In this document: positions 1 to 38,005 of the stretch, piece after piece
Layout: each line of letters begins with the position of its first letter
How positions within the stretch are numbered: position 1 is the first letter of the stretch
Source of the DNA: Planctomycetota bacterium
GTDB lineage: Bacteria > Planctomycetota > UBA8108 > UBA1146
DNA: 38,005 bases
Direction: 5' to 3'
NCBI GenBank assembly: GCA_036338595.1
Contig: JAYZBV010000038.1
Location: forward strand, 1 to 38,005
Notes under the pieces: generated by a model
Seen by the model: only the letters and a program-made list of their open reading frames with translations
Database searches by the model: none
Told to the model about the DNA's origin: nothing
Made by a program: the position numbers and the translations under genes

Positions 1-1671
1 TGGTGCGACCATCATGTGGGCTGCTCCGACGACCACCGATAACTGCCCGGGAGCCACGCTCTCGAGCACGCACCAGCCAGGAGAGAACTTCCCGGTCGGT
101 ACGACAACGGTGACCTACACCTCGGATGACGCCAACGGGCTCTCCAGCAATGGCTCCTTCGATATCACGGTGACCGACGACGAACTGCCGGTGTTCGATT
201 CTGCTCCTGGCGACATGCCGCTGGATACAGATCCTGGCAGCTGTGAGACGATCGTCACCTGGGCAGAGCCTCTGACCAGTGACAACTGTGGACCAAATCC
301 GCTACTCAGCGGCACGCATCTGTCGGGTTCGTCATTCCCACTCGGGGATACCACGGTGACATACACCGTCGAGGATCAGCACGGAAACACCGCACAGAGT
401 TCATTCGTCATCACCATCAGTGATAATGAAGACCCGACGCTATCCGGCGTTCCGACTTCCTTCACGGTGACCAACGATCCGGACCTCTGTGGAGCCACGG
501 TATCCTGGGCAGAGCCAACTGCTGCGGATAACTGTGGAATCGCTGGCACAAACAGTGATGTCCAGAGCGGGTCGTTCCTGGATGTCGGTGATACTACCGT
601 CACCTATGCGACGACAGACCAGAGTGGAAATCTGACCACCCAGGCCTTCACGGTCACGGTGCTCGATGACCAGAATCCTCAGTTCACCAGCGCACCTGCC
701 AGCGTTACCCAGGGTACTGACCGGGGCGCTTGCGGAGCCGTTGTCATGTGGGCAGCTCCCACGATCTTCGAGAACTGTGGTTCGCAATCTCTGGATTCCA
801 GTCATGGTTCAGGTTCCTTCTTCGAAAAAGGCTCCACGACCGTGACAATGACCTCGACAGATGGCAGTAACAATTCAACAACTCACACCTTCTCGGTGAC
901 CATCGAGGATACCGAGGATCCGACCCTGTCAGGCACGCCGCTTGATCTGTCGACGACGGCAGATCCAGGTTCTTGTGGGGCTCTTGTCAGCTGGACTCCT
1001 CCGACAGCAGCCGATAACTGCCCGGGTGAGCAGCTCGATGCAAGCCACCAGCCCGGCGACTTCTTCGATGTTGGTTCTACGACCGTCTCCTTCACGGCAA
1101 CAGATTCGAGCGGGCTCTCCGTTTCGACCAGTTTCAGTGTGACCGTGACCGATGACGAGGCACCGGCTTACTCCGGAGCACCGGCTTCGCAGGATCTCTC
1201 CAGCGACCCCGGTTCCTGTGGGGCAGTCGCCACCTGGGCTGCACACAGCAATTCTGATAACTGTGGTGTTGCCTCGGATACGTCGACCTCTGCATCGGGT
1301 GACTTCTTCGGACTCGGTACGACGACCGTGACGATGACTCTCGACGATATTCACGGAAACTCCACGACACATGAGTTCTCGATCACCGTCACCGACACGG
1401 AAGCGCCGGTGATTCATGATCTTCCCACCAGCATGACCCAGACCGCCGAGGCGGGTACATGTGGTGCGACCATCATGTGGGCTGCTCCGACGGCCACCGA
1501 TAACTGCCCGGGAGCCACGCTCTCGAGTACGCACCAGCCAGGAGAGAACTTCCCGGTCGGTACGACAACGGTGACCTACATCTCGGATGACGCCAACGGG
1601 CTCTCCAGCAGTGGCTCCTTCGATATCACGATCACCGACGACGAACTGCCGGTGTTCGATTCTGCTCCTGG
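1..1671 (+). repeat. Near-identical direct repeat inside the HYR gene: 1-~210 and 1462-~1671 (offset 1461 nt = 487 codons = 6 modules)
   Basis: TGGTGCGACCATCATGTGGGCTGCTCCGACG...TTCGATTCTGCTCCTGG occurs at both positions with only a handful of substitutions. Confidence 0.9.
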
Positions 1672-30011: not shown

Positions 30012-30673
30012 ATCCCCCGGTCCTGTTGGTCACTGCAGGACCGACACGCGAGCCGATCGACGATGTCCGATATCTCAGCAACGGTGCCAGCGGAACCCTC
30101 GGCATCGAAACGGCTCTTGCTGCCAGAGATGCCGGCTGGCAGGTTCACCTGGCACTGGGACCGGTGGCCAGCCACCCTCCCCTCGAGGGGATTCATCTGC
30201 ATCCATTCACCACTGCCCGAGATCTGGAAGAAATTGCGGTCGAACTGTGGTCAGAGGTCGACTCCCTGGTCGCGACCGCTGCTGTTTGCGATTACCGCCC
30301 CGCCGAAAAAATCGACGGAAAACGCAAGAAGTCCGCTGGAGACTGGAACCTGCGACTGGTGCGAAACCCCGATGTACTGGCGGGCAGAGGAGCCGAAAAG
30401 GGCGATCGGGTGCTGGTCGGTTTTGCCCTGGAAGCGACCCTGGATGTGGAAGAAGCACTGCGAAAGGCCGTGAACAAACGGCTGGATCTGGTACTTTGCA
30501 ACACACCGGGGAACCTGGGCGCAGCCATGGGGGACTACGTCTGGATTGAACCCGGGGGGCACACTGATTCGATGCCAGCGATCTCGAAGCGAGAACTGGC
30601 GCAGAAGTTGGTGGAGTTCATCGGCACAAAGGTCGCTTCTCGCCGCAGGGACCGTGCCTTCAACGGGGAATGA
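30008..30673 (+). CDS. coaB: Phosphopantothenate-cysteine ligase (DFP half of CoaBC)
   Basis: LVTAGPTREPIDDVRYLSNGASG, AAVCDYRP, NPDVL, VGFALE, SKRELA. TTG start overlaps the coaC TGA. Confidence 0.9.
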   Translation: MNPPVLLVTAGPTREPIDDVRYLSNGASGTLGIETALAARDAGWQVHLALGPVASHPPLEGIHLHPFTTARDLEEIAVELWSEVDSLVATAAVCDYRPAEKIDGKRKKSAGDWNLRLVRNPDVLAGRGAEKGDRVLVGFALEATLDVEEALRKAVNKRLDLVLCNTPGNLGAAMGDYVWIEPGGHTDSMPAISKRELAQKLVEFIGTKVASRRRDRAFNGE

Positions 30674-33174
30674 TGACATCAAATCGCAGTAAGCGAAGAC
30701 GCCGTGACAGCACTCGCAAGGAGCCGCGACGTCTCGGTCAGGAAGCTCTCGCGCTCGCCTTGCTGGCGCTGAGTGCCTTCTTCTTCATCGCACTCTACAG
30801 CGAGTACCTCGTTGCTCAGGGTCGCAGTGCATCGAACGCCTGTGGTTCCTTCGGGCACTTCATCGCCATGACCCACTTTAACATTTTCGGCCCACTTGCG
30901 GGCTTCCTGCTCGCGGCGATGTTTGCCGTGTGGGCCGGAATGCTGCTGTTTCAGGTGCGGATCCAGTCGTGGTGGCCACGGCTCGGCGGGCTGGCACTCT
31001 TCTGCCTCGCCGTCTGCTTGCTCGAGTTTCGGTTCACGGATCAGTCGATGCTGGGATCGGCCTACGAATACAAGGGCGGACTCCTCGGCATGTACATCGG
31101 CCAGGCGACCTTCGACTTCTTTGGGCTCACCGGCACCACCATCTTCGCGTTCCTTGCTGTGGCGCTTGGATTGATGTTCACGACCGGGATGCCGGTGGCC
31201 AACCTGCTTCGAGTGGGCTTGGCGACGATCGGAAATGCGGCCAGCGGAGTTTCCAGAAAGACACCGGGTGTTGCACGGCGCGTTGCCGGCAGCGTCTCTC
31301 AGGCTGCCAGCGATACCATCGCCAAGGTGTCTCGTTCAACGAGCAAGGCGGATGCTGCTGAAGTCAGCGATGAGGAAAAAAATCTGCTGCTGGGCGACGA
31401 GGAAGAAGAGGAATACGAGTACGAGGACGAGGAAGAGGAAGAAGGTCTCGAGGAGTACGACGAGGACGAGGAAGAAGAAGAGGACGAGGAAGAAGAAGAG
31501 GAAGAGGACGAGGAAGAAGAGGAAGAGGAAGAGGAATACGAGGAGGACGAGGATGAAGAGGAGGAGGATCTTGACGAGTACGCAGAGGACGAGGAGCAGG
31601 CTGTAGCACCCCCTCGAACCATTCGCCTCGGTCCCGAGCAAGATGAAGAGGCGATCGTCACCTTCGAGGAGGAGCAACTCACCTTCGATGGTGTCTATTC
31701 ACCTCCTTCCATCTCCTTCCTTTCGGAGCCTCCCACTGTCGATCATGAGGAGGGCAAGGAAGAACTCGATCAGGTCGCCACTCGCATCGAGGAGACGTTG
31801 CGCTCCTTCAAGATCGAGTCCGCTGTCACCAATGTTCAGCGTGGACCCGTCATCACCCAGTACGAGCTGAGTCTCGCTGCTGGAACCAAGGTTCAAAAAA
31901 TCGTCGCTCTCTCCGATGACCTGGCGATGGCGCTCTCTGCACAGAGCGTCCGGGTCGTGGCACCGATTCCGGGCAAGCCGACCGTTGGCATCGAGGTCCC
32001 CAACAAGCAGCGAGAGACGGTGGTTCTTCGCGAGCTGCTGCAAAGCCGTGTCTACCACGATTCAGATATGAAGATTCCGCTACTTCTCGGCAAGGATGCT
32101 GCAGGAGAACCGATCGTCGAGGATCTCACCGGGATGCCGCACCTGCTCATCGCGGGATCCACCGGATCGGGAAAATCGGTCTGCATCAATGCGATCATCA
32201 CATCGATTCTGATGACTCGTACCCCCGATGAACTGAAGTTGATCCTGGTCGATCCGAAGATGGTCGAACTCTCGATGTTCGAGGACATCCCTCACCTGCT
32301 GACACCGGTGATCACCGACATGAAGAAGGCACCGGCGGCACTGGAGTGGCTGGTTCGAAAGATGGACCAGCGCTACGAGTTGCTATCCAAGGCGGGGGTC
32401 AAGAACCTCAAGGACTACAACGATCTGGAAGAAGAGGATCGCTACAACCGCATCGCAGAAAAAACCAGTCACGAAGAGGCGGAGCAGACTCCCAAGCAGT
32501 TGCCCTATCTCACCATCATCATCGACGAACTCGCCGACCTGATGATGACGAGCGCCAAGGAGGTGGAAACGACCATCATCCGCCTCGCTCAGAAATCGAG
32601 AGCGGTGGGGATCCATGTGATCCTCGCCACCCAGAGGCCATCGGTCGATGTCGTCACGGGCTTGATCAAGTCCAACATGCCCGCGCGGATCTGTTTCAAG
32701 GTGGCCAGTCGCATCGATTCCCGGACGATCCTCGATCGGATGGGCGGCGAACGGCTGCTCGGCATGGGGGATATGCTCTACCTCGCGCCCGATACAGATA
32801 TTCTCAAGCGAGCCCAGTGCACCTACATCTCCGACAAGGAGTTGCGAAAGGTGGTCAAGCACCTGCGCAAGGAAGCGAAGCCGCAATTCTCTCAGGAGAT
32901 GGATTCGTTCCTCGACGGCCGACAGGATGGAGCCGGTGGTGCCGCCGGGATCCCCGAGGATGCTCTCTACGAGGAAGCGGTGAGGGTGGTGCTGGAAACG
33001 GGCCGCGGTTCGACCACACTGCTGCAGCGCAGACTCGGCGTCGGCTATACCCGTGCGTCGAGACTGATGGATGCGATGACGGACCAGGCGATTCTCGGCC
33101 CCTTCCGCGGTGCCAAGCCGCGCGAAATCTTGCTCACGATGGAAGAGTGGGAAGAGAGCCAGTCGCAGACATGA
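30670..33174 (+). CDS. ftsK: DNA translocase FtsK/SpoIIIE
   Basis: N-terminal multi-TM region, MPHLLIAGSTGSGKS Walker A, IIDELADLM Walker B, ATQRPSVDV, gamma domain LQRRLGVGYTRASRL. Confidence 0.97.
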   Translation: MMTSNRSKRRRRDSTRKEPRRLGQEALALALLALSAFFFIALYSEYLVAQGRSASNACGSFGHFIAMTHFNIFGPLAGFLLAAMFAVWAGMLLFQVRIQSWWPRLGGLALFCLAVCLLEFRFTDQSMLGSAYEYKGGLLGMYIGQATFDFFGLTGTTIFAFLAVALGLMFTTGMPVANLLRVGLATIGNAASGVSRKTPGVARRVAGSVSQAASDTIAKVSRSTSKADAAEVSDEEKNLLLGDEEEEEYEYEDEEEEEGLEEYDEDEEEEEDEEEEEEEDEEEEEEEEEYEEDEDEEEEDLDEYAEDEEQAVAPPRTIRLGPEQDEEAIVTFEEEQLTFDGVYSPPSISFLSEPPTVDHEEGKEELDQVATRIEETLRSFKIESAVTNVQRGPVITQYELSLAAGTKVQKIVALSDDLAMALSAQSVRVVAPIPGKPTVGIEVPNKQRETVVLRELLQSRVYHDSDMKIPLLLGKDAAGEPIVEDLTGMPHLLIAGSTGSGKSVCINAIITSILMTRTPDELKLILVDPKMVELSMFEDIPHLLTPVITDMKKAPAALEWLVRKMDQRYELLSKAGVKNLKDYNDLEEEDRYNRIAEKTSHEEAEQTPKQLPYLTIIIDELADLMMTSAKEVETTIIRLAQKSRAVGIHVILATQRPSVDVVTGLIKSNMPARICFKVASRIDSRTILDRMGGERLLGMGDMLYLAPDTDILKRAQCTYISDKELRKVVKHLRKEAKPQFSQEMDSFLDGRQDGAGGAAGIPEDALYEEAVRVVLETGRGSTTLLQRRLGVGYTRASRLMDAMTDQAILGPFRGAKPREILLTMEEWEESQSQT
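31396..31596 (+). repeat. Low-complexity GAR/GAC tract encoding ~67 mostly acidic residues in the FtsK linker
   Basis: Runs of GAGGAAGAAGAG / GAGGACGAG / GAATACGAG. Confidence 0.85.
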
Positions 33175-33405
33175 CCAGGCCGTAGCCCCGTCAGTTTCGG
33201 TTCACTACGGGTCGATGGCATGGCGATCATCGATGGTCAGAGTTGTGCCAGATCTGGCAAACAGCGAACGGCTGTGCATTCCGCTCTGACGATTCCCTAC
33301 ATGTACCTGTGCCCGTAGCCAGTTGTCATCCGAGGTACCTATTCTGGGTTGGGCATGATAAAGGACTTGAACCATGAATCGTGCGACAATGGAGCGGGAG
33401 GCCTC

Positions 33406-34830
33406 ATGAGCATTCGATACAAACTTCTCGCCCTGCTGACGGCGGCACTTTTCCCCGCCACTGGCCATTCCCAGCAAACTCCCATCGACTTCGCCCCTCC
33501 CGTGTCGGTGGTGATGGCGGACAAGGTCAATGCCGTAAAAATGGCGGACGTCGATGCCGATGGCCACCTCGACATCATCGCCTTGCAGGGGGAGCCGTCA
33601 CTCTCTTCCGGGATGTTCGTCGCTCTCGGCGATGGCAGCGGTAATTTCGATGCCCCCATCTTCAACCCGATCTCCATCAGCTGGCCCTGGGCGGTCGATG
33701 TCGGCGACATCAACGAGGATGGAGTCATCGATGCGGTCGTTACCGATTTCCTGAGCGGCCAGTTTGCCTACCTGGAAGGAAACAGCGACGGAACCTTCAG
33801 CGAACAGCCGAGGTTGGTGCCCGGCTGGGGAGGCGGAAATCCGCAGGTACAGGTCGTCGATATCGATGACGATGGACACCTCGACGTGATCGCCGTCGAT
33901 TTGTTCGGTTCGCGGTTACAGGTGGCATGGGGCACAGGAATTGATGATCCGCTGGCCGCGTTCGACGGTCTGACGTCGGTCCCGCTGACGGGATTTCCAC
34001 TCAGCTTCGATATCGCCGATCTCGATGGCGATGGCGACCTCGACCTGTGCTGCGGTTTCAACGCCGGCAGCGGTGGTGGGGTGGCGACCAGCCTCTACCA
34101 GGGGAACAGGAACTTCTCCGCCGAGGAACGCGAGATCGGCGGGCTGACCGAGTCTCACTGGTCGACGAGGGCCATCGACCTCGATGGCGGACTGCCCGAG
34201 ATCGTGTCCGTCGAGGAGGGTCTGGGAAATCTTGGAATCTTCACGCTGAATGCAGGGATTCCCCAGGCCGGGATCCCGATCTTCACCGGATCGAATCAGC
34301 GCCATGTGGCCGGTGGGGATCTCGACCTCGATGGCATCACCGACCTGGTGATCAGAAACTACTCTTCCGGAGATCTTGTCATCCTGCAGGGAATCGGCGC
34401 CTTGAAATTCCTGGATGTGTGGACCCTCGACGGATCGGTTGCCTTCTCTGGCCTGGAACTGGTCGATGTGAACGGCGATGGAAGTCTCGACATCGTCGTC
34501 GGCAACTACGACCAATCGACCGTCTCCTACTACCTGAATCTGGCGGTCAGTGGAGCCTTCAGGCGCGGCGAACTCAACGGCGATGGCAACACCAACATCG
34601 CCGATGCCGTGTTCCTGCTCGCCTACCTCTTCAACAATGGGGTCACCCCGGGTTGTCTGGATGCCGCCGACACCAACGATGATGGGGCGGTCAACATCTC
34701 CGATGCGGTGACATTGCTGGCGGTTCTCTTCAGCGGGGCCCCGCCACTGCCGGAGCCGATCGGCTCGTGCGGTCAGGATCCGACCGATGATGCGCTCGAG
34801 TGCGAAGATTCAGGAGATTCCTGCCTGTGA
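33406..34830 (+). CDS. Secreted FG-GAP/VCBS-repeat beta-propeller protein with C-terminal dockerin-like domain
   Basis: Signal peptide MSIRYKLLALLTAALFPATGHS, about 7 D.DGDG.LD repeats, tail FRRGELNGDGNTNIADAV...DTNDDGAVNISDAV...CGQDPTDDALEC. Confidence 0.88.
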   Translation: MSIRYKLLALLTAALFPATGHSQQTPIDFAPPVSVVMADKVNAVKMADVDADGHLDIIALQGEPSLSSGMFVALGDGSGNFDAPIFNPISISWPWAVDVGDINEDGVIDAVVTDFLSGQFAYLEGNSDGTFSEQPRLVPGWGGGNPQVQVVDIDDDGHLDVIAVDLFGSRLQVAWGTGIDDPLAAFDGLTSVPLTGFPLSFDIADLDGDGDLDLCCGFNAGSGGGVATSLYQGNRNFSAEEREIGGLTESHWSTRAIDLDGGLPEIVSVEEGLGNLGIFTLNAGIPQAGIPIFTGSNQRHVAGGDLDLDGITDLVIRNYSSGDLVILQGIGALKFLDVWTLDGSVAFSGLELVDVNGDGSLDIVVGNYDQSTVSYYLNLAVSGAFRRGELNGDGNTNIADAVFLLAYLFNNGVTPGCLDAADTNDDGAVNISDAVTLLAVLFSGAPPLPEPIGSCGQDPTDDALECEDSGDSCL

Positions 34831-34953: not shown

Positions 34954-35021
34954 GTCCGGCCCCCCCGGTGAAGCGGATCACCCTGTAGCGGGCATGAGCC
35001 TGCTGGGCCGCCGGGACCCGC
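34954..35021 (+). promoter_or_regulatory. Conserved upstream motif copy 1 (GTCCGG-N14-CGGAT-N6-GTAGCGGGC-N4-GCCTGC-TGGG-N4-CGGG..CCCGC)
   Basis: Matches copy 2 at 35381-35447 with identical spacing of the first blocks; lies upstream of the 37-aa ORF. Confidence 0.7.
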
Positions 35022-35057: not shown

Positions 35058-35171
35058 ATGACAGCAATAGTCAAACGCTTCGGAGTCTGGGGTCTGGTCT
35101 TCTTCACGGTGAAGGGTCTCTTGTGGCTGGTAGTGCCCGGCATGGCCGTTTATCTGGGAATTGGTGGCTAG
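35058..35171 (+). CDS. Small membrane protein, 37 aa (MTAIVKRFGVWGLVFFTVKGLLWLVVPGMAVYLGIGG)
   Basis: ATG 35058 to TAG 35169-71; hydrophobic with an FFxxKGLLWL motif; start context TGGTGAAACATGACAG is identical to that of the heme oxygenase. Below the ORF-track length cutoff. Confidence 0.75.
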   Translation: MTAIVKRFGVWGLVFFTVKGLLWLVVPGMAVYLGIGG

Positions 35172-35380
35172 CCGCTGCTCTGGAACTCGACCTTTCCCCC
35201 GGGAACAGGTCTCCACGCCCTCTGCTGCCGGATTTCACGGAAGTTGAGGGCGCTGGCAATTGAGGGTTGCAGATGCGCTGGCTCTGCTCGGAGCCAGAAG
35301 CTGTAAAACCTCGAATATCGCCACTAATCAGCGATTTAACCCAATTTCGACCCCATTCCTCGATCCACAGGACTTTTCCG

Positions 35381-35447
35381 GTCCGGTGATCCCCCAGGTA
35401 CGGATAGATAGGTAGCGGGCGAGTGCCCGCAGGGAGAGCGGGCCCGC
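35381..35447 (+). promoter_or_regulatory. Conserved upstream motif copy 2 (GTCCGG-N14-CGGAT-N6-GTAGCGGGC-N4-GCCCGC-AGGG-N4-CGGGCCCGC)
   Basis: Same blocks and spacing as copy 1; lies upstream of the heme oxygenase. Confidence 0.7.
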
Positions 35448-35481
35448 ACCCCGCGACTTTGAGAAGACAAGGTGGTGAAAC

Positions 35482-36273
35482 ATGACAGACTCCAGGATCA
35501 ACGAAATCGACCGCGAGACGGCCTCCAGCGAGAATACCGATCAGTCCGGCAGCGGACGCTCCGATGCGCCCGCCAACGCCAAGGAAGAGATCACCTTCGC
35601 AAAAAGGCTGCGCGCCGAGACCGCCCAGGCACACCGCTTCGCCGAGTCCACCAACTTCGTCAAGGGCATCTTGAAGGGTGTCATGGACCTCGCCAGCTTC
35701 GGCAACATGCAAGCCGGCATGTACCTCGTCTACGAGGCGTTGGAGGCAGAACTCGAGCGCCACAAGGACGACCCGATCGTCGGCCGCATCTACTTCCCCG
35801 TGCTCAGCCGCAAGGCCGCACTGGAGGCCGATCTCGAGTTCCTCTACGGCGAAGACTGGCACAGCCAGGTGCGCAGCACTCCCGCTCGCAGGGAATATGT
35901 CGAGCGCATCCACTGGCTCGGCGACAACGACCCCACCCTGCTCGTGGCCCACAGTTACACGCGCTACCTCGGAGACCTCTCCGGCGGTCAGGTGATCTCC
36001 AAGATCGCCCGTCGCTCGTTGGGACTCGAGGGCAGCAACGGCCTGACCTTCTTCGATTTTGACGAGATCGAGGACGGCAAGGCATTCAAGAACGAATACC
36101 GCAACCGACTCAGCCAGTTGCCGCTCGACGAAGTCCGTGCACAGGAGGTCATCGAAGAAGCCAAGCAGGCCTTCTCCTTCAACCAGCGCCTCTTCGAGGA
36201 GCTGGAGGGCAGCTGGATCCGCACCCTCGCGAACTTCCTCCCACTCGGTTTTAATAGGCGCAAGCGGGCCTAA
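35482..36273 (+). CDS. Heme oxygenase (biliverdin-producing, cyanobacterial/algal HO1-like)
   Basis: LR.ET..AH..AE (proximal His), LVYEALE, YFP.L.R..ALE.DL.F.YG.DW, LVAHSYTRYLGDLSGGQ distal helix, FK..YR..L, EA..AF.FN..LF.EL. Confidence 0.95.
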   Translation: MTDSRINEIDRETASSENTDQSGSGRSDAPANAKEEITFAKRLRAETAQAHRFAESTNFVKGILKGVMDLASFGNMQAGMYLVYEALEAELERHKDDPIVGRIYFPVLSRKAALEADLEFLYGEDWHSQVRSTPARREYVERIHWLGDNDPTLLVAHSYTRYLGDLSGGQVISKIARRSLGLEGSNGLTFFDFDEIEDGKAFKNEYRNRLSQLPLDEVRAQEVIEEAKQAFSFNQRLFEELEGSWIRTLANFLPLGFNRRKRA

Positions 36274-36325
36274 TCCACGGGCCGGCACAGTTGAGCCAGC
36301 AGAGTGGGACCGGGAGTGTGACACC

Positions 36326-37516
36326 ATGGATATTGTGAGCATGGGCGGCGAGACCGCCGCCCCGGATGCGGATCACGGTTTCGATGCCGAGACCTTCAAG
36401 GAGTTCATCTCCTTCGACGTCGGTGACGGCGATCCAATCTACTACCACAGCGTCGGCAAGCTCTATCGCCAGCCCGGCGGCGAGATCATCGCCGGCGTCG
36501 AGGCGCTGGTGAGCAATCGGCTCGTCAAGATGGAAGGGAACCAGGCAGAGGCAATTTGCCGCACCCTGGTGATCTACCGCGACCCCGACAGCGGCGAGAT
36601 CCTGCAAGAGGATGACGGCCGCCACATCGTCCGCGAATACCCCTACATCACGGCCCGCTTCGAACTGAAGGATCGCCACCTGGTGATTTACACCGAGGGC
36701 CTCAGTGGACCGCATCAGAACGGGCTCTACGGCCTCGCAAGGGTCAGCAACGACAAGGTCTTTGCACAGCGCTCCGGCGACACCACCTTCTTCTACTGGA
36801 CCCTCTACGGCGAGGTCGAGACCCCCATCGGCAAGGTCTGGTTCAACGAGGCCTACAACGGCTCGACCGCTCCCGGCGTGCCCGATGTGATGGTGATGAA
36901 TCGCTACGGCACGCTGCCGGCCTTCGCGGGCATGGGTGACGGCTTCATGCAGACCACCGCCGCTCGCATCGACTCCTACGAGCAGCTCCCCGAGCACCTT
37001 CGCGAGTATGTCGAGGAGCACGCACCCTCACACTGCGCCCCCCCCGTCGATGATGCAGAGATCGAACGACTCAAGCAGGAGTACCTCGGCGACAATCCAC
37101 CCGAGGTGCCGAAGTCAGAGGCCCCCGAGCAGCTGAGCAAGGAGCAGATCGCCGAGGTCGTGGGAGGATACTTCTCGTGCCTGCGCAACATGCAGGTCGA
37201 CGAGTTGCTCGAGCTCTTCAGCGAAGACGCGCTGAGCTGGGATCCCGTCGGCACTCCGCCGTTGCTGGTCCGCGACAAGTCGACCAATTACTTCAAGGCG
37301 CTCTCTGGCTTCTTCGAGAAGATGGCTCTGACCGAGGATGACATGTTCGTGGCGGGGAACGAGGCCGCTGTCCGGTGGACCGGTGTCGCAAAGTTGCGAA
37401 AGAAGGAGAAGGAACTCACCTTCGAGGGAGTCTCTGTCTTCACCGTCAATCCCGATGGATTGATCTCCTGCGTTCGTTCTTACTGGGACAAGAAGACGCT
37501 GATGTCGAGTCTTTGA
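36326..37516 (+). CDS. DUF1838-like domain fused to a C-terminal SnoaL/NTF2-like (KSI-like) domain
   Basis: N-domain G.LY...GGEII.GVE...R.LVIYRDPDSGEIL...RYG.LP...A.RIDSYEQLP..LREYV resembles DUF1838 (from recall). C-domain YF.CL......L.ELFSEDA...DPVG...EAAVRW...FEG.SVF....DGLI...RSYWD is NTF2/SnoaL. ATG at 36326 follows GGAG. Confidence 0.72.
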   Translation: MDIVSMGGETAAPDADHGFDAETFKEFISFDVGDGDPIYYHSVGKLYRQPGGEIIAGVEALVSNRLVKMEGNQAEAICRTLVIYRDPDSGEILQEDDGRHIVREYPYITARFELKDRHLVIYTEGLSGPHQNGLYGLARVSNDKVFAQRSGDTTFFYWTLYGEVETPIGKVWFNEAYNGSTAPGVPDVMVMNRYGTLPAFAGMGDGFMQTTAARIDSYEQLPEHLREYVEEHAPSHCAPPVDDAEIERLKQEYLGDNPPEVPKSEAPEQLSKEQIAEVVGGYFSCLRNMQVDELLELFSEDALSWDPVGTPPLLVRDKSTNYFKALSGFFEKMALTEDDMFVAGNEAAVRWTGVAKLRKKEKELTFEGVSVFTVNPDGLISCVRSYWDKKTLMSSL

Positions 37517-37527
37517 GGAGGAGTGCG

Positions 37528-38005
37528 ATGAACGAAGCAGCCGATGATCCAGCGATGGTAGACCCGGAAAAGTACGCCGCCGTTGCGGATAACTTCGTGT
37601 ATGTCCACCGTGCCCTGCGCCGGGATCTGGCGCGCATCATCGCCGGCGGCGACGAACTCTTCACCAGCGACTTCCCGCGCTTTGCTCGCATCCTCGAGAA
37701 GCACTCGGAACTGGAAGACACGCTCTTCTTCCCTCCCCTGGAGGAACGCGCTCCCGGCTCGACCGGTGCCAGCGTCGATCAGCACCGTCAAATCGAAGCC
37801 CTCGTGGCCACTCTATCGGGCGGCAACTCGACCGACATCCAGGGCGACCTGGCTGCTCTCCAGCAACTGCTGCTGACTCATCTCGATGGTGAGGAGCAGC
37901 AGGTGATGCCGGCGATGATGGAGCACTTCGAGGCGGCCGAGATCTGGGCCCTCGATGGCAGGATCATGGAGTTCTGCTCGCCGGAGTTCATGCAGGAGAT
38001 GATGC
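37528..38005 (+). CDS. Hemerythrin-like HHE cation-binding protein (3'-partial)
   Basis: Manual translation from ATG 37528 (SD GAGGAGGAG): MNEAADD...VHRALRRDL...LEKHSELEDTLFFPPL...DQHRQIE...LTHLDGEEQQVMP..., which gives the H/HxxxE/H/HxxxE pattern. No stop before the window end, so it is missing from the ORF track. Confidence 0.85.
   Translation, partial: MNEAADDPAMVDPEKYAAVADNFVYVHRALRRDLARIIAGGDELFTSDFPRFARILEKHSELEDTLFFPPLEERAPGSTGASVDQHRQIEALVATLSGGNSTDIQGDLAALQQLLLTHLDGEEQQVMPAMMEHFEAAEIWALDGRIMEFCSPEFMQEMM

Follow-up and report, generated by a model that had tools for sequence, protein, structure and literature searches.

A conserved heme oxygenase, DUF1838-SnoaL fusion and hemerythrin cassette of marine Planctomycetota, with a possible role in heme recycling

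Gene layout of the locus

The stretch of DNA analysed here (the window) is the entire contig JAYZBV010000038.1, 38,005 nt in length and termed C38 below, of a 2.9-Mb draft genome that is 88 % complete and derives from a planctomycete of the UBA8108 lineage (assembly GCA_036338595.1). At its 3′ end, open reading frame (ORF) calls reveal four genes, all on the + strand: a micro-ORF, a heme oxygenase (HO), a fusion of a DUF1838 domain to a SnoaL domain, and an HHE hemerythrin. The last three constitute the cassette considered in this report. The genes and the domains of the fusion are as follows.

35058-35171, + strand: 37-aa single-helix membrane microprotein (hydropathy 1.98)
35482..36273, + strand: HO1-type heme oxygenase, 263 aa (PF01126, 244.6 bits, E 1e-72)
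36326-37516, + strand: DUF1838-SnoaL fusion, 396 aa
36368..37090, + strand: DUF1838 domain of the fusion, a predicted FABP-type beta-barrel with capping helices (AlphaFold2 pLDDT 93.8)
37139..37516, + strand: SnoaL/NTF2 domain of the fusion, ketosteroid-isomerase type (SnoaL_2, 54.8 bits; aligned to 6p3l/6p44)
37528..38005, + strand: HHE hemerythrin-like protein, cut by the contig end, with 159 aa present (PF01814, 45.3 bits)

An earlier note on this DNA, made from its letters alone, had described four co-oriented genes with gaps of 52 nt between HO and fusion and 11 nt between fusion and HHE, and the ORF coordinates agree on each count. The stronger use of C- and G-ending codons that it saw in the last three genes is also evident: G+C at third codon positions (GC3) is 0.845 for HO, 0.826 for the fusion and 0.78 for HHE, compared with 0.61-0.74 for six neighbouring genes, and these values exceed those of 99.4-99.9 % of the 1768 ORFs in the genome. 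The micro-ORF, at 0.66, lies within the ordinary range. The suggestion that the operon continues beyond the window edge did not hold, as in relatives there is no conserved gene past HHE and only ~58 HHE codons are cut off; a longer operon was rejected because the genes that follow HHE differ from locus to locus.

Conservation of the cassette

Amongst uncultured marine bacteria the order HO-fusion-HHE is retained in contigs of Planctomycetota and of Myxococcota-like bacteria, with close homologues bearing the source names Planctomycetes/Planctomycetota and Myxococcales/Myxococcota; contigs L017-L020 appear to be Myxococcota-like, judging from their ~70 % identity. In total 44 fusion loci were compared (26 from metagenomes and 18 from genomes), the taxa of which overlap so that the loci are not independent. 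HO lies upstream of the fusion in 42 of these, and HHE downstream in 32 of the 34 that have enough flanking sequence, the loci without a partner being L025 and two whose sequence ends close to the gene. Within the host's family 17 of 24 genomes contain the fusion, and in other families of the same order and class it was found in none of 16. A sample of the phylum returned it from 8 of 11 family genomes and from one genome of a distant family (G207), whilst the match in G147 is a stand-alone DUF1838 fragment. Strong HO1 matches occur in the same 17 family genomes and in G004, where the contig ends inside the HO gene. The carrier genomes referred to below are drafts, 88-95 % complete.

The flanks of the cassette change completely between loci, and nothing is conserved after HHE. 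Between clades the fusion shows 70 % identity, as opposed to 52-57 % for HO and HHE, making it the most conserved of the three, and unrooted gene trees of HO, fusion and HHE agree on the main clades. The cassette may have moved as a unit between phyla. The core system is these three genes, and their conserved co-occurrence in other genomes, on which the earlier note had made its proposal depend, extends across two phyla. No relatives were found in viral contigs, nor any of the micro-ORF or the barrel in plasmids. In two of the Myxococcota-like loci (L019 and L020) the cassette is preceded by an FAA-hydrolase gene, to which L019 adds one for an FAD monooxygenase, and the genes that follow it resemble, by eye, methylamine dehydrogenase subunits.

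Heme oxygenase

HO1-type enzymes convert heme to biliverdin IX-alpha, CO and Fe2+. The product of the first cassette gene, the score of which compares with a PF01126 cut-off of 23 bits, aligns at E 1e-62 with PDB entry 1we1, which we take to be a cyanobacterial HO1, and also with 2q32. His51, a YTRY-G-DLSGG helix, Lys203 and Arg207 are invariant in 18 of 18 aligned HO sequences; these presumably represent the proximal His, the distal helix (with its Asp and GG) and the Lys/Arg pair associated with alpha-cleavage. On the basis of these residues the enzyme is predicted to be catalytically intact and to yield biliverdin IX-alpha, CO and Fe2+. Its N-terminal extension (35482-35590) is variable, at ~35-50 aa, with a TGR-x-D-x-P stretch recurring in both clades.

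The fusion protein

The N-terminal domain of the fusion matches DUF1838 (PF08894) at 20.2 bits, below the gathering cut-off of 25, and a PF08894 scan of the host genome gave no matches over that cut-off. The assignment is backed by Atlas (0.95, 206 shared features), by whole-domain homology to DUF1838 members in phmmer (E down to 4e-22), and by PF08894 matches at E<=0.001 in 28 of 37 scanned distant relatives, and judged by these comparisons the domain is a divergent DUF1838 subclade. Amongst its relatives without SnoaL the nearest (L025:2353-3125; 59-68 % identity) is a barrel that contains a frame break. A GNAT gene stands beside the latter on the opposite strand, and P0027 and P0029 are further SnoaL-less members of the same barrel clade.

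The full fusion was modelled with a pLDDT of 86.5 and a pTM of 0.67. In VIA comparisons the modelled barrel aligns with 2fr2, presumably the nitrobindin Rv2717c, at Z 12.6 (rmsd 3.3 over 151 residues), and with 2fwv (11.9) and the plant (11.8) and human (11.7) nitrobindins, such that the nitrobindin group as a whole spans Z 11.7-12.6 with an rmsd of 3.3-3.8 over 147-151 residues. Lower values were obtained for BFA1 (10.7), DUF3598 (10.3), CpeS (10.1), CpeT (9.8) and CpcT (8.3). The barrel is thus predicted to be antiparallel and of the FABP type, as are nitrobindins and the S- and T-type phycobiliprotein lyases (3wjb, 3ia8, 2fr2, 4tq2, 5hi8, 4o4o; Z 8.3-12.6), but it shares only 4-11 % identity with them, has an extra C-terminal helical part and is fused to a domain of the ketosteroid isomerase (KSI) type. 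It also lacks profile homology to CpeT-like barrels, and no CpeS/CpeT Pfam match was found in the fusion.

When the fusion clade (n=16) is set against 45 stand-alone relatives, the conserved polar residues Arg31, Asp62, Lys80, Gln108 and His209 prove to be replaced in the clade, and His41, Cys78, His130 and Trp158 to be fixed, an altered residue set that points to a changed ligand or reaction. Some of these positions bear on an alternative that we regard as unlikely, in which the fusion would act upstream of HO as a heme-holding chaperone, resembling PhuS or nitrobindin, and pass heme on to HO, the chief purpose of SnoaL being to dimerise the protein or to offer another pocket. Nitrobindins are the best soluble structural matches and, as described in PMC7915275, hold heme by a proximal His in a 10-stranded barrel; the clade has in addition gained His41 and His130, each invariant in 16 of 16 members. 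However, the last-strand His of 27 of the 45 stand-alone proteins is Gln209 in all 16 clade members, and the invariant Tyr, Asp and Ser of the SnoaL domain, described below, suggest catalysis.

The likeness of the modelled barrel to S- and T-type lyases also admits a new biliprotein, the fusion being a lyase-isomerase that would isomerise biliverdin and attach it to its own Cys78 or to Cys150 of HHE. The former Cys is shared by all 16 clade members (it is Ser in 30 of the 45 stand-alone relatives), the latter is invariant in 17 of 17 HHE sequences, and no other bilin acceptor was found in the carriers searched. We nevertheless consider this improbable, as Cys150 may belong to the iron site, its counterpart in the FBXL5 hemerythrin domain being a Cys close to the C-terminus, there is no light-sensing output domain nearby, and rhodopsin is found in one of five carriers.

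With regard to the SnoaL domain, Foldseek aligns it with KSI at a TM of 0.80-0.86 and an rmsd of 2.1-2.7, although polyether epoxide hydrolases score as well. Tyr282, Asp306 (within DPVG) and Ser370 align with the catalytic positions Tyr16, Asp40 and Asp/Ser103 of 6p3l, and in the D38N entry 6p44 it is precisely the Asp306 column that differs; both entries are, we assume, the KSI of Mycobacterium hassiacum. These three residues, along with Tyr386-Trp387, are invariant in all 21-22 covering rows of a 24-row alignment. The domain therefore has in common with Delta5-3-ketosteroid isomerase of the Ser103 type both its fold and a Tyr, an Asp (DPVG) and a Ser at three catalytic positions, but differs in its ~20 % identity, in a Phe at the Tyr57 position and in the fused barrel. 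PMC8754429 reports S103 variants and describes Ser103-type isomerases that are active. A catalytic acid-base role for the SnoaL domain is likely, given the conservation of these residues.

The HHE hemerythrin

Full-length homologues of the HHE protein are 208-229 aa long, and that of the window is expected to be about 217 aa. His27, His59, Glu63, His86, Glu90, His118, Glu122 and Cys150 are invariant in all 17 HHE sequences, and the seven His and Glu positions make up the di-iron ligand motifs. The nearest solved structures are the FBXL5 domain and 6q09, the latter presumably the NO-peroxidase HLP of Mycobacterium kansasii, and with both the protein shares the H-HxxxE-HxxxE-HxxxE ligand pattern and a C-terminal Cys. 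It differs from them in forming its own dedicated clade (at least ~50 % identity within, 25-28 % to the next relatives) with a conserved C-terminal extension of ~60 aa. The HxxxH...D ligand pattern of O2-carrying hemerythrins is lacking, and the protein would seem to bind or sense iron rather than carry O2.

Since 6q09 is the closest solved relative of HHE, and nitrobindins reportedly scavenge NO and peroxynitrite, the cassette might instead be an oxidative or nitrosative stress module, with biliverdin as antioxidant and with HHE and a heme-loaded barrel scavenging NO or peroxide. This too seems improbable, as the annotated genes that bear the promoter-like motif described below include no stress genes, a search for the biliverdin reductase family (run without a positive control) found nothing, and the KSI-type domain is left unexplained.

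Stand-alone DUF1838 proteins

A scan returned 294 stand-alone DUF1838 matches, the best 80 of which were examined for neighbours. The earlier note had proposed surveying DUF1838 neighbourhoods for HO and HHE partners; such partners surround the fusion clade, but none was encountered within 6 kb of the stand-alone gene at any of the 80 loci, indicating that the link to HO is specific to the fusion clade. Recurring neighbours at these loci are instead a PuuE-like cyclic-amide hydrolase (23), an isochorismatase-family amidase (23), a nitrilase-family protein (16), a LeuC/LeuD-DmdB-type hydratase pair (12), a PrpB-like lyase (10) and a CpeT-like barrel (20 with a profile, 6 with one query). At least one of this set (cyclic-amide hydrolase, amidases, LeuCD/DmdAB-type hydratase, PrpB-like lyase, CpeT-like barrel) is carried by 32 of the 80 loci. 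These islands may encode a pathway in which an imide is converted to an amide and then to an alkylmaleate that is finally cleaved; maleimides derived from tetrapyrroles would suit it, although other N-heterocycles also fit.

Islands of Proteobacteria and Acidobacteriota (amongst L063-L142) also contain TonB receptors. Cultured bacteria with a stand-alone DUF1838 island include Parasphingorhabdus marina and Alkalicaulis satelles. Certain DUF1838 relatives (P0043, P0047, P0049, P0069, P0075, P0079 and P0093) have long low-complexity N-terminal extensions and look, by eye, eukaryotic, possibly algal and organelle-targeted. In the open-access literature DUF1838 was found only in gene-table entries for Streptomyces clusters, with no function given.

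Upstream elements, the microprotein and RNA cover

Three features precede or separate the genes.

34954..34987, + strand: promoter-like site 1, GTCCG-N15-CGGAT-N6-GTA (putative -35, -10 and +1 of an alternative sigma factor)
35216..35252, + strand: hairpin predicted by RNAfold between the microprotein and HO promoters, a weak terminator candidate
35381..35414, + strand: promoter-like site 2, before HO-fusion-HHE, GTCCG-N15-C[GT]GAT-N6-TA; an RNA contig of run X4 starts at 35433

The bipartite element GTCCG-N15-C[GT]GAT-N6-TA occurs in 39 upstream regions of carrier loci, including the two of the window, and is kept only in part in L019 and L020. With a spacer of 15 the genome yields 6 strict matches, and with any other length between 10 and 20 it yields 0-1. 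Each of the 20 other genomes from the four carrier genera has 2-8 strict copies; none occurs in the 4 remaining genomes of the family, and the 16 outsiders have 0-1, with a reversed control giving 0-2. In genome G000, 23 upstream regions score at least 12 bits, as opposed to 0 and 2.9 in controls, although the matrix was partly trained on these sites. The element also precedes rpmA, ybaB and genes for a CitE-like lyase, a dockerin, a multicopper oxidase and secreted proteins. Thus the upstream motif noted for the first two genes is indeed shared by them, but it is a lineage-wide promoter-like site that is not specific to the system. In the search for the responsible sigma factor, a clean copy was found upstream of none of 12 sigma genes. 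An Rfam search of the leaders gave a single chance match (mir-658, E=2), and a riboswitch or known RNA was rejected, the repeated element being better explained as a promoter with a 5′ hairpin; this explanation is preferred because in three loci the ribosome-binding site lies within ~10 nt of the TA.

The micro-ORF and HO have in common a 16-nt string across the start codon that occurs nowhere else in the genome. Across 24 distinct DNA cores the micro-ORF contains no stops and shows 224 synonymous versus 109 non-synonymous codon differences, from which the 37-aa ORF is judged to be real and under coding constraint. The microprotein, a member of a wider small family, was found in 18 of 24 family genomes and is unlinked from HO in G007. 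It is not in the cassette of G207 or of the Myxococcota-like loci, and is absent from L010, L012, L055, L017, L019 and L020. The microprotein, which the earlier note had counted as a component of the system, is instead a co-regulated neighbour, optional and separately promoted. The hairpin at 35216..35252 was not called as a terminator in the window and is bridged by an RNA contig; in genus g7 a hairpin and then a T-run lie between the microprotein and HO genes.

Small shares of the stretch occur in 20 RNA runs of marine or vent origin, which belong to 14 studies; four of the runs were compared. RNA contigs of the four cover parts of all four genes; in two studies the first covered positions are 34995 and 34996, a short way past site 1, and one contig of 1.66 kb spans microprotein, HO and fusion. 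For the 19.9 kb upstream, which served as a control, X8 gave broad cover, X4 gave 8 short pieces, X3 gave 3 partial ones and X1 a single short piece. The contigs fit transcription from the motif, but do not rank the genes or prove a single transcript.

Other elements behind the same promoter-like site include a conserved, apparently non-coding RNA of ~115 nt (G000 C97, about 1-154, minus strand; L143; L145), which occurs in genera g1 and g7 and combines arms rich in G and in C with an anti-Shine-Dalgarno-like CACCTCCTC and an end resembling a terminator; no Rfam family reached threshold. Peptides of 53-79 aa (L215:576-734 in G000 C37, L233 and L223) also follow the site, and the three scanned gave no Pfam match; the 53-aa peptides contain what we take to be a stretch like a double-glycine leader. 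A CitE/HpcH-like gene in L218 and L229 has an apparent ATC start behind a strong ribosome-binding site, its L222 orthologue having ATG. In the window itself, a secreted FG-GAP/dockerin protein (33349-34830; one weak, sub-cut-off TcdB_midN match) is encoded just upstream of the cassette and an FtsK-like protein carrying a long Glu/Asp tract lies at 30670-33174. An antisense ORF of 412 aa at 35104-36342 has no family match and was treated as a shadow frame.

Biliverdin users and heme uptake in carriers

Operons in which HO is linked to a gene that uses biliverdin (bphO-bphP), or serves heme utilisation (HmuO, and HemO/PigA with PhuS/HemS and TonB-dependent receptors), are known. The bilin reductase, phytochrome or heme-uptake genes that the earlier note proposed looking for failed to appear in the carrier genomes tested: bilin reductase and the phytochrome PHY domain are each found in 0 of 6, the phycobiliprotein family PF00502 in 0 of 14 (a profile that may miss divergent globins), and in G000 all three GAF domains that match at E<=1e-8 lack the DIP and CH bilin motifs. 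The heme receptor TIGR01785 exceeds its cut-off in 0 of 14 carriers, 10 of which have a sub-cut-off receptor elsewhere. No heme receptor or HemS linked to HO is conserved in the cassette flanks, and HemS, present in one of five carriers, is not linked to HO. Due to the absence of a canonical heme receptor from these searches, the heme more probably originates in the cell itself, or is imported by an unrecognised route.

The cassette resembles the HmuO and HemO/PigA operons in combining an intact HO1-family oxygenase with a neighbour able to bind substrate or product, but its partners are DUF1838-SnoaL and HHE, it has no receptor over cut-off, and its promoter-like site is shared with non-iron genes. 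Clusters of HO, pre-PcyA and a bilin-associated globin occur in non-photosynthetic bacteria, with pre-PcyA lineages found in Planctomycetes and Myxococcales, according to PMC10151467. These and the bphO-bphP operons likewise place HO in a heterotroph, next to genes expected to use biliverdin; the present cassette differs in that its carriers are apparently without bilin reductase, PHY and PF00502.

Proposed role of the cassette

The reading that we favour, to which we give a little less than an even chance, is that the cassette recycles heme, HO making biliverdin, HHE taking the iron and the fusion processing the biliverdin. HO would cleave heme to biliverdin IX-alpha, CO and Fe2+, and HHE would capture the iron so released. 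The fusion barrel would take up biliverdin from HO, and the SnoaL domain could then alter it by an acid-base step, either isomerisation or water addition. Both folds of the fusion are predicted from models, and its ligand, the hand-over and its reaction are conjectural. In favour of this reading are the conserved gene order, the strong HO1 matches in the genomes that carry the fusion, the high conservation of the fusion, the heme- and bilin-binding folds amongst the nearest soluble matches of the barrel, and the failure of the searches to turn up a usual biliverdin user; the neighbours of the stand-alone DUF1838 genes, a set that would fit the breakdown of imides derived from pyrroles, offer an independent clue.

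Several observations weigh against this proposal, in addition to the 80 stand-alone loci without HO or HHE. Foldseek gave no clear match for the barrel model, and in the VIA comparisons values as high as those of the nitrobindins are reached by a designed barrel (Z 12.6) and by barrels of the outer membrane (11.2-11.9), with the OlmO spirocyclase (9.7) and the anti-sigma RsfG (9.6) close behind; hhalign of the barrel profile to CpeT-like barrels gave a probability of 0.3. The modelled fold alone therefore reveals no function, and suggests a pocket but not which ligand fills it. No small ferredoxin to reduce HO was found in G000, where two Fer2 matches sit in frames of 215 and 423 aa. A search of 14 carrier genomes for the PuuE-like hydrolase (one query, no positive control) found none, and the other hydrolases and the lyase of the island set were not found in G000, where full breakdown is thus not supported; the carriers apparently lack these island enzymes. 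An iron- or heme-specific regulon is not supported, since the promoter-like element precedes mixed genes and is not iron-specific. Finally, in L025 a MaoC-like gene precedes the SnoaL-less barrel, and 3.4 kb of sequence contain no HO.

The last two points are also those expected if the ligand of the fusion is lipid- or steroid-like and has nothing to do with tetrapyrroles, its gene having no more in common with HO and HHE than a promoter; both FABP-type barrels and KSI pockets take hydrophobic ligands. We hold this to be quite unlikely, however, given that the three genes are ordered together across two phyla amidst changing flanks, with trees that share their main clades, and that HHE forms a clade dedicated to the cassette.

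Returning to heme recycling, a broader form of it, possible but doubtful, is that DUF1838 is a family of bilin-handling barrels, in which the fusion would take biliverdin beyond the point where HO normally ends, isomerising or hydrating it as the first step of an undescribed bilin disposal; the downstream half, made up of imide and amide hydrolases with an alkylmaleate hydratase and lyase, would reside in the stand-alone islands of aquatic bacteria. To our knowledge the fate of biliverdin in bacteria without bilin reductases or phytochromes is largely open, as is marine tetrapyrrole breakdown. The claim that no system of this combination had been described is consistent with the open-access literature, in which no description of HO with hemerythrin and SnoaL, or of a DUF1838 pathway, was found. 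The cassette is conserved, apparently expressed and related to HO operons, with partners for which no description was found. It places DUF1838 beside an enzyme of known product, and so provides a concrete candidate ligand for an uncharacterised family. Were the proposal correct, a family that occurs in cyanobacteria, in proteobacteria and probably in algae would gain a function, and the HO reaction a possible iron sink.

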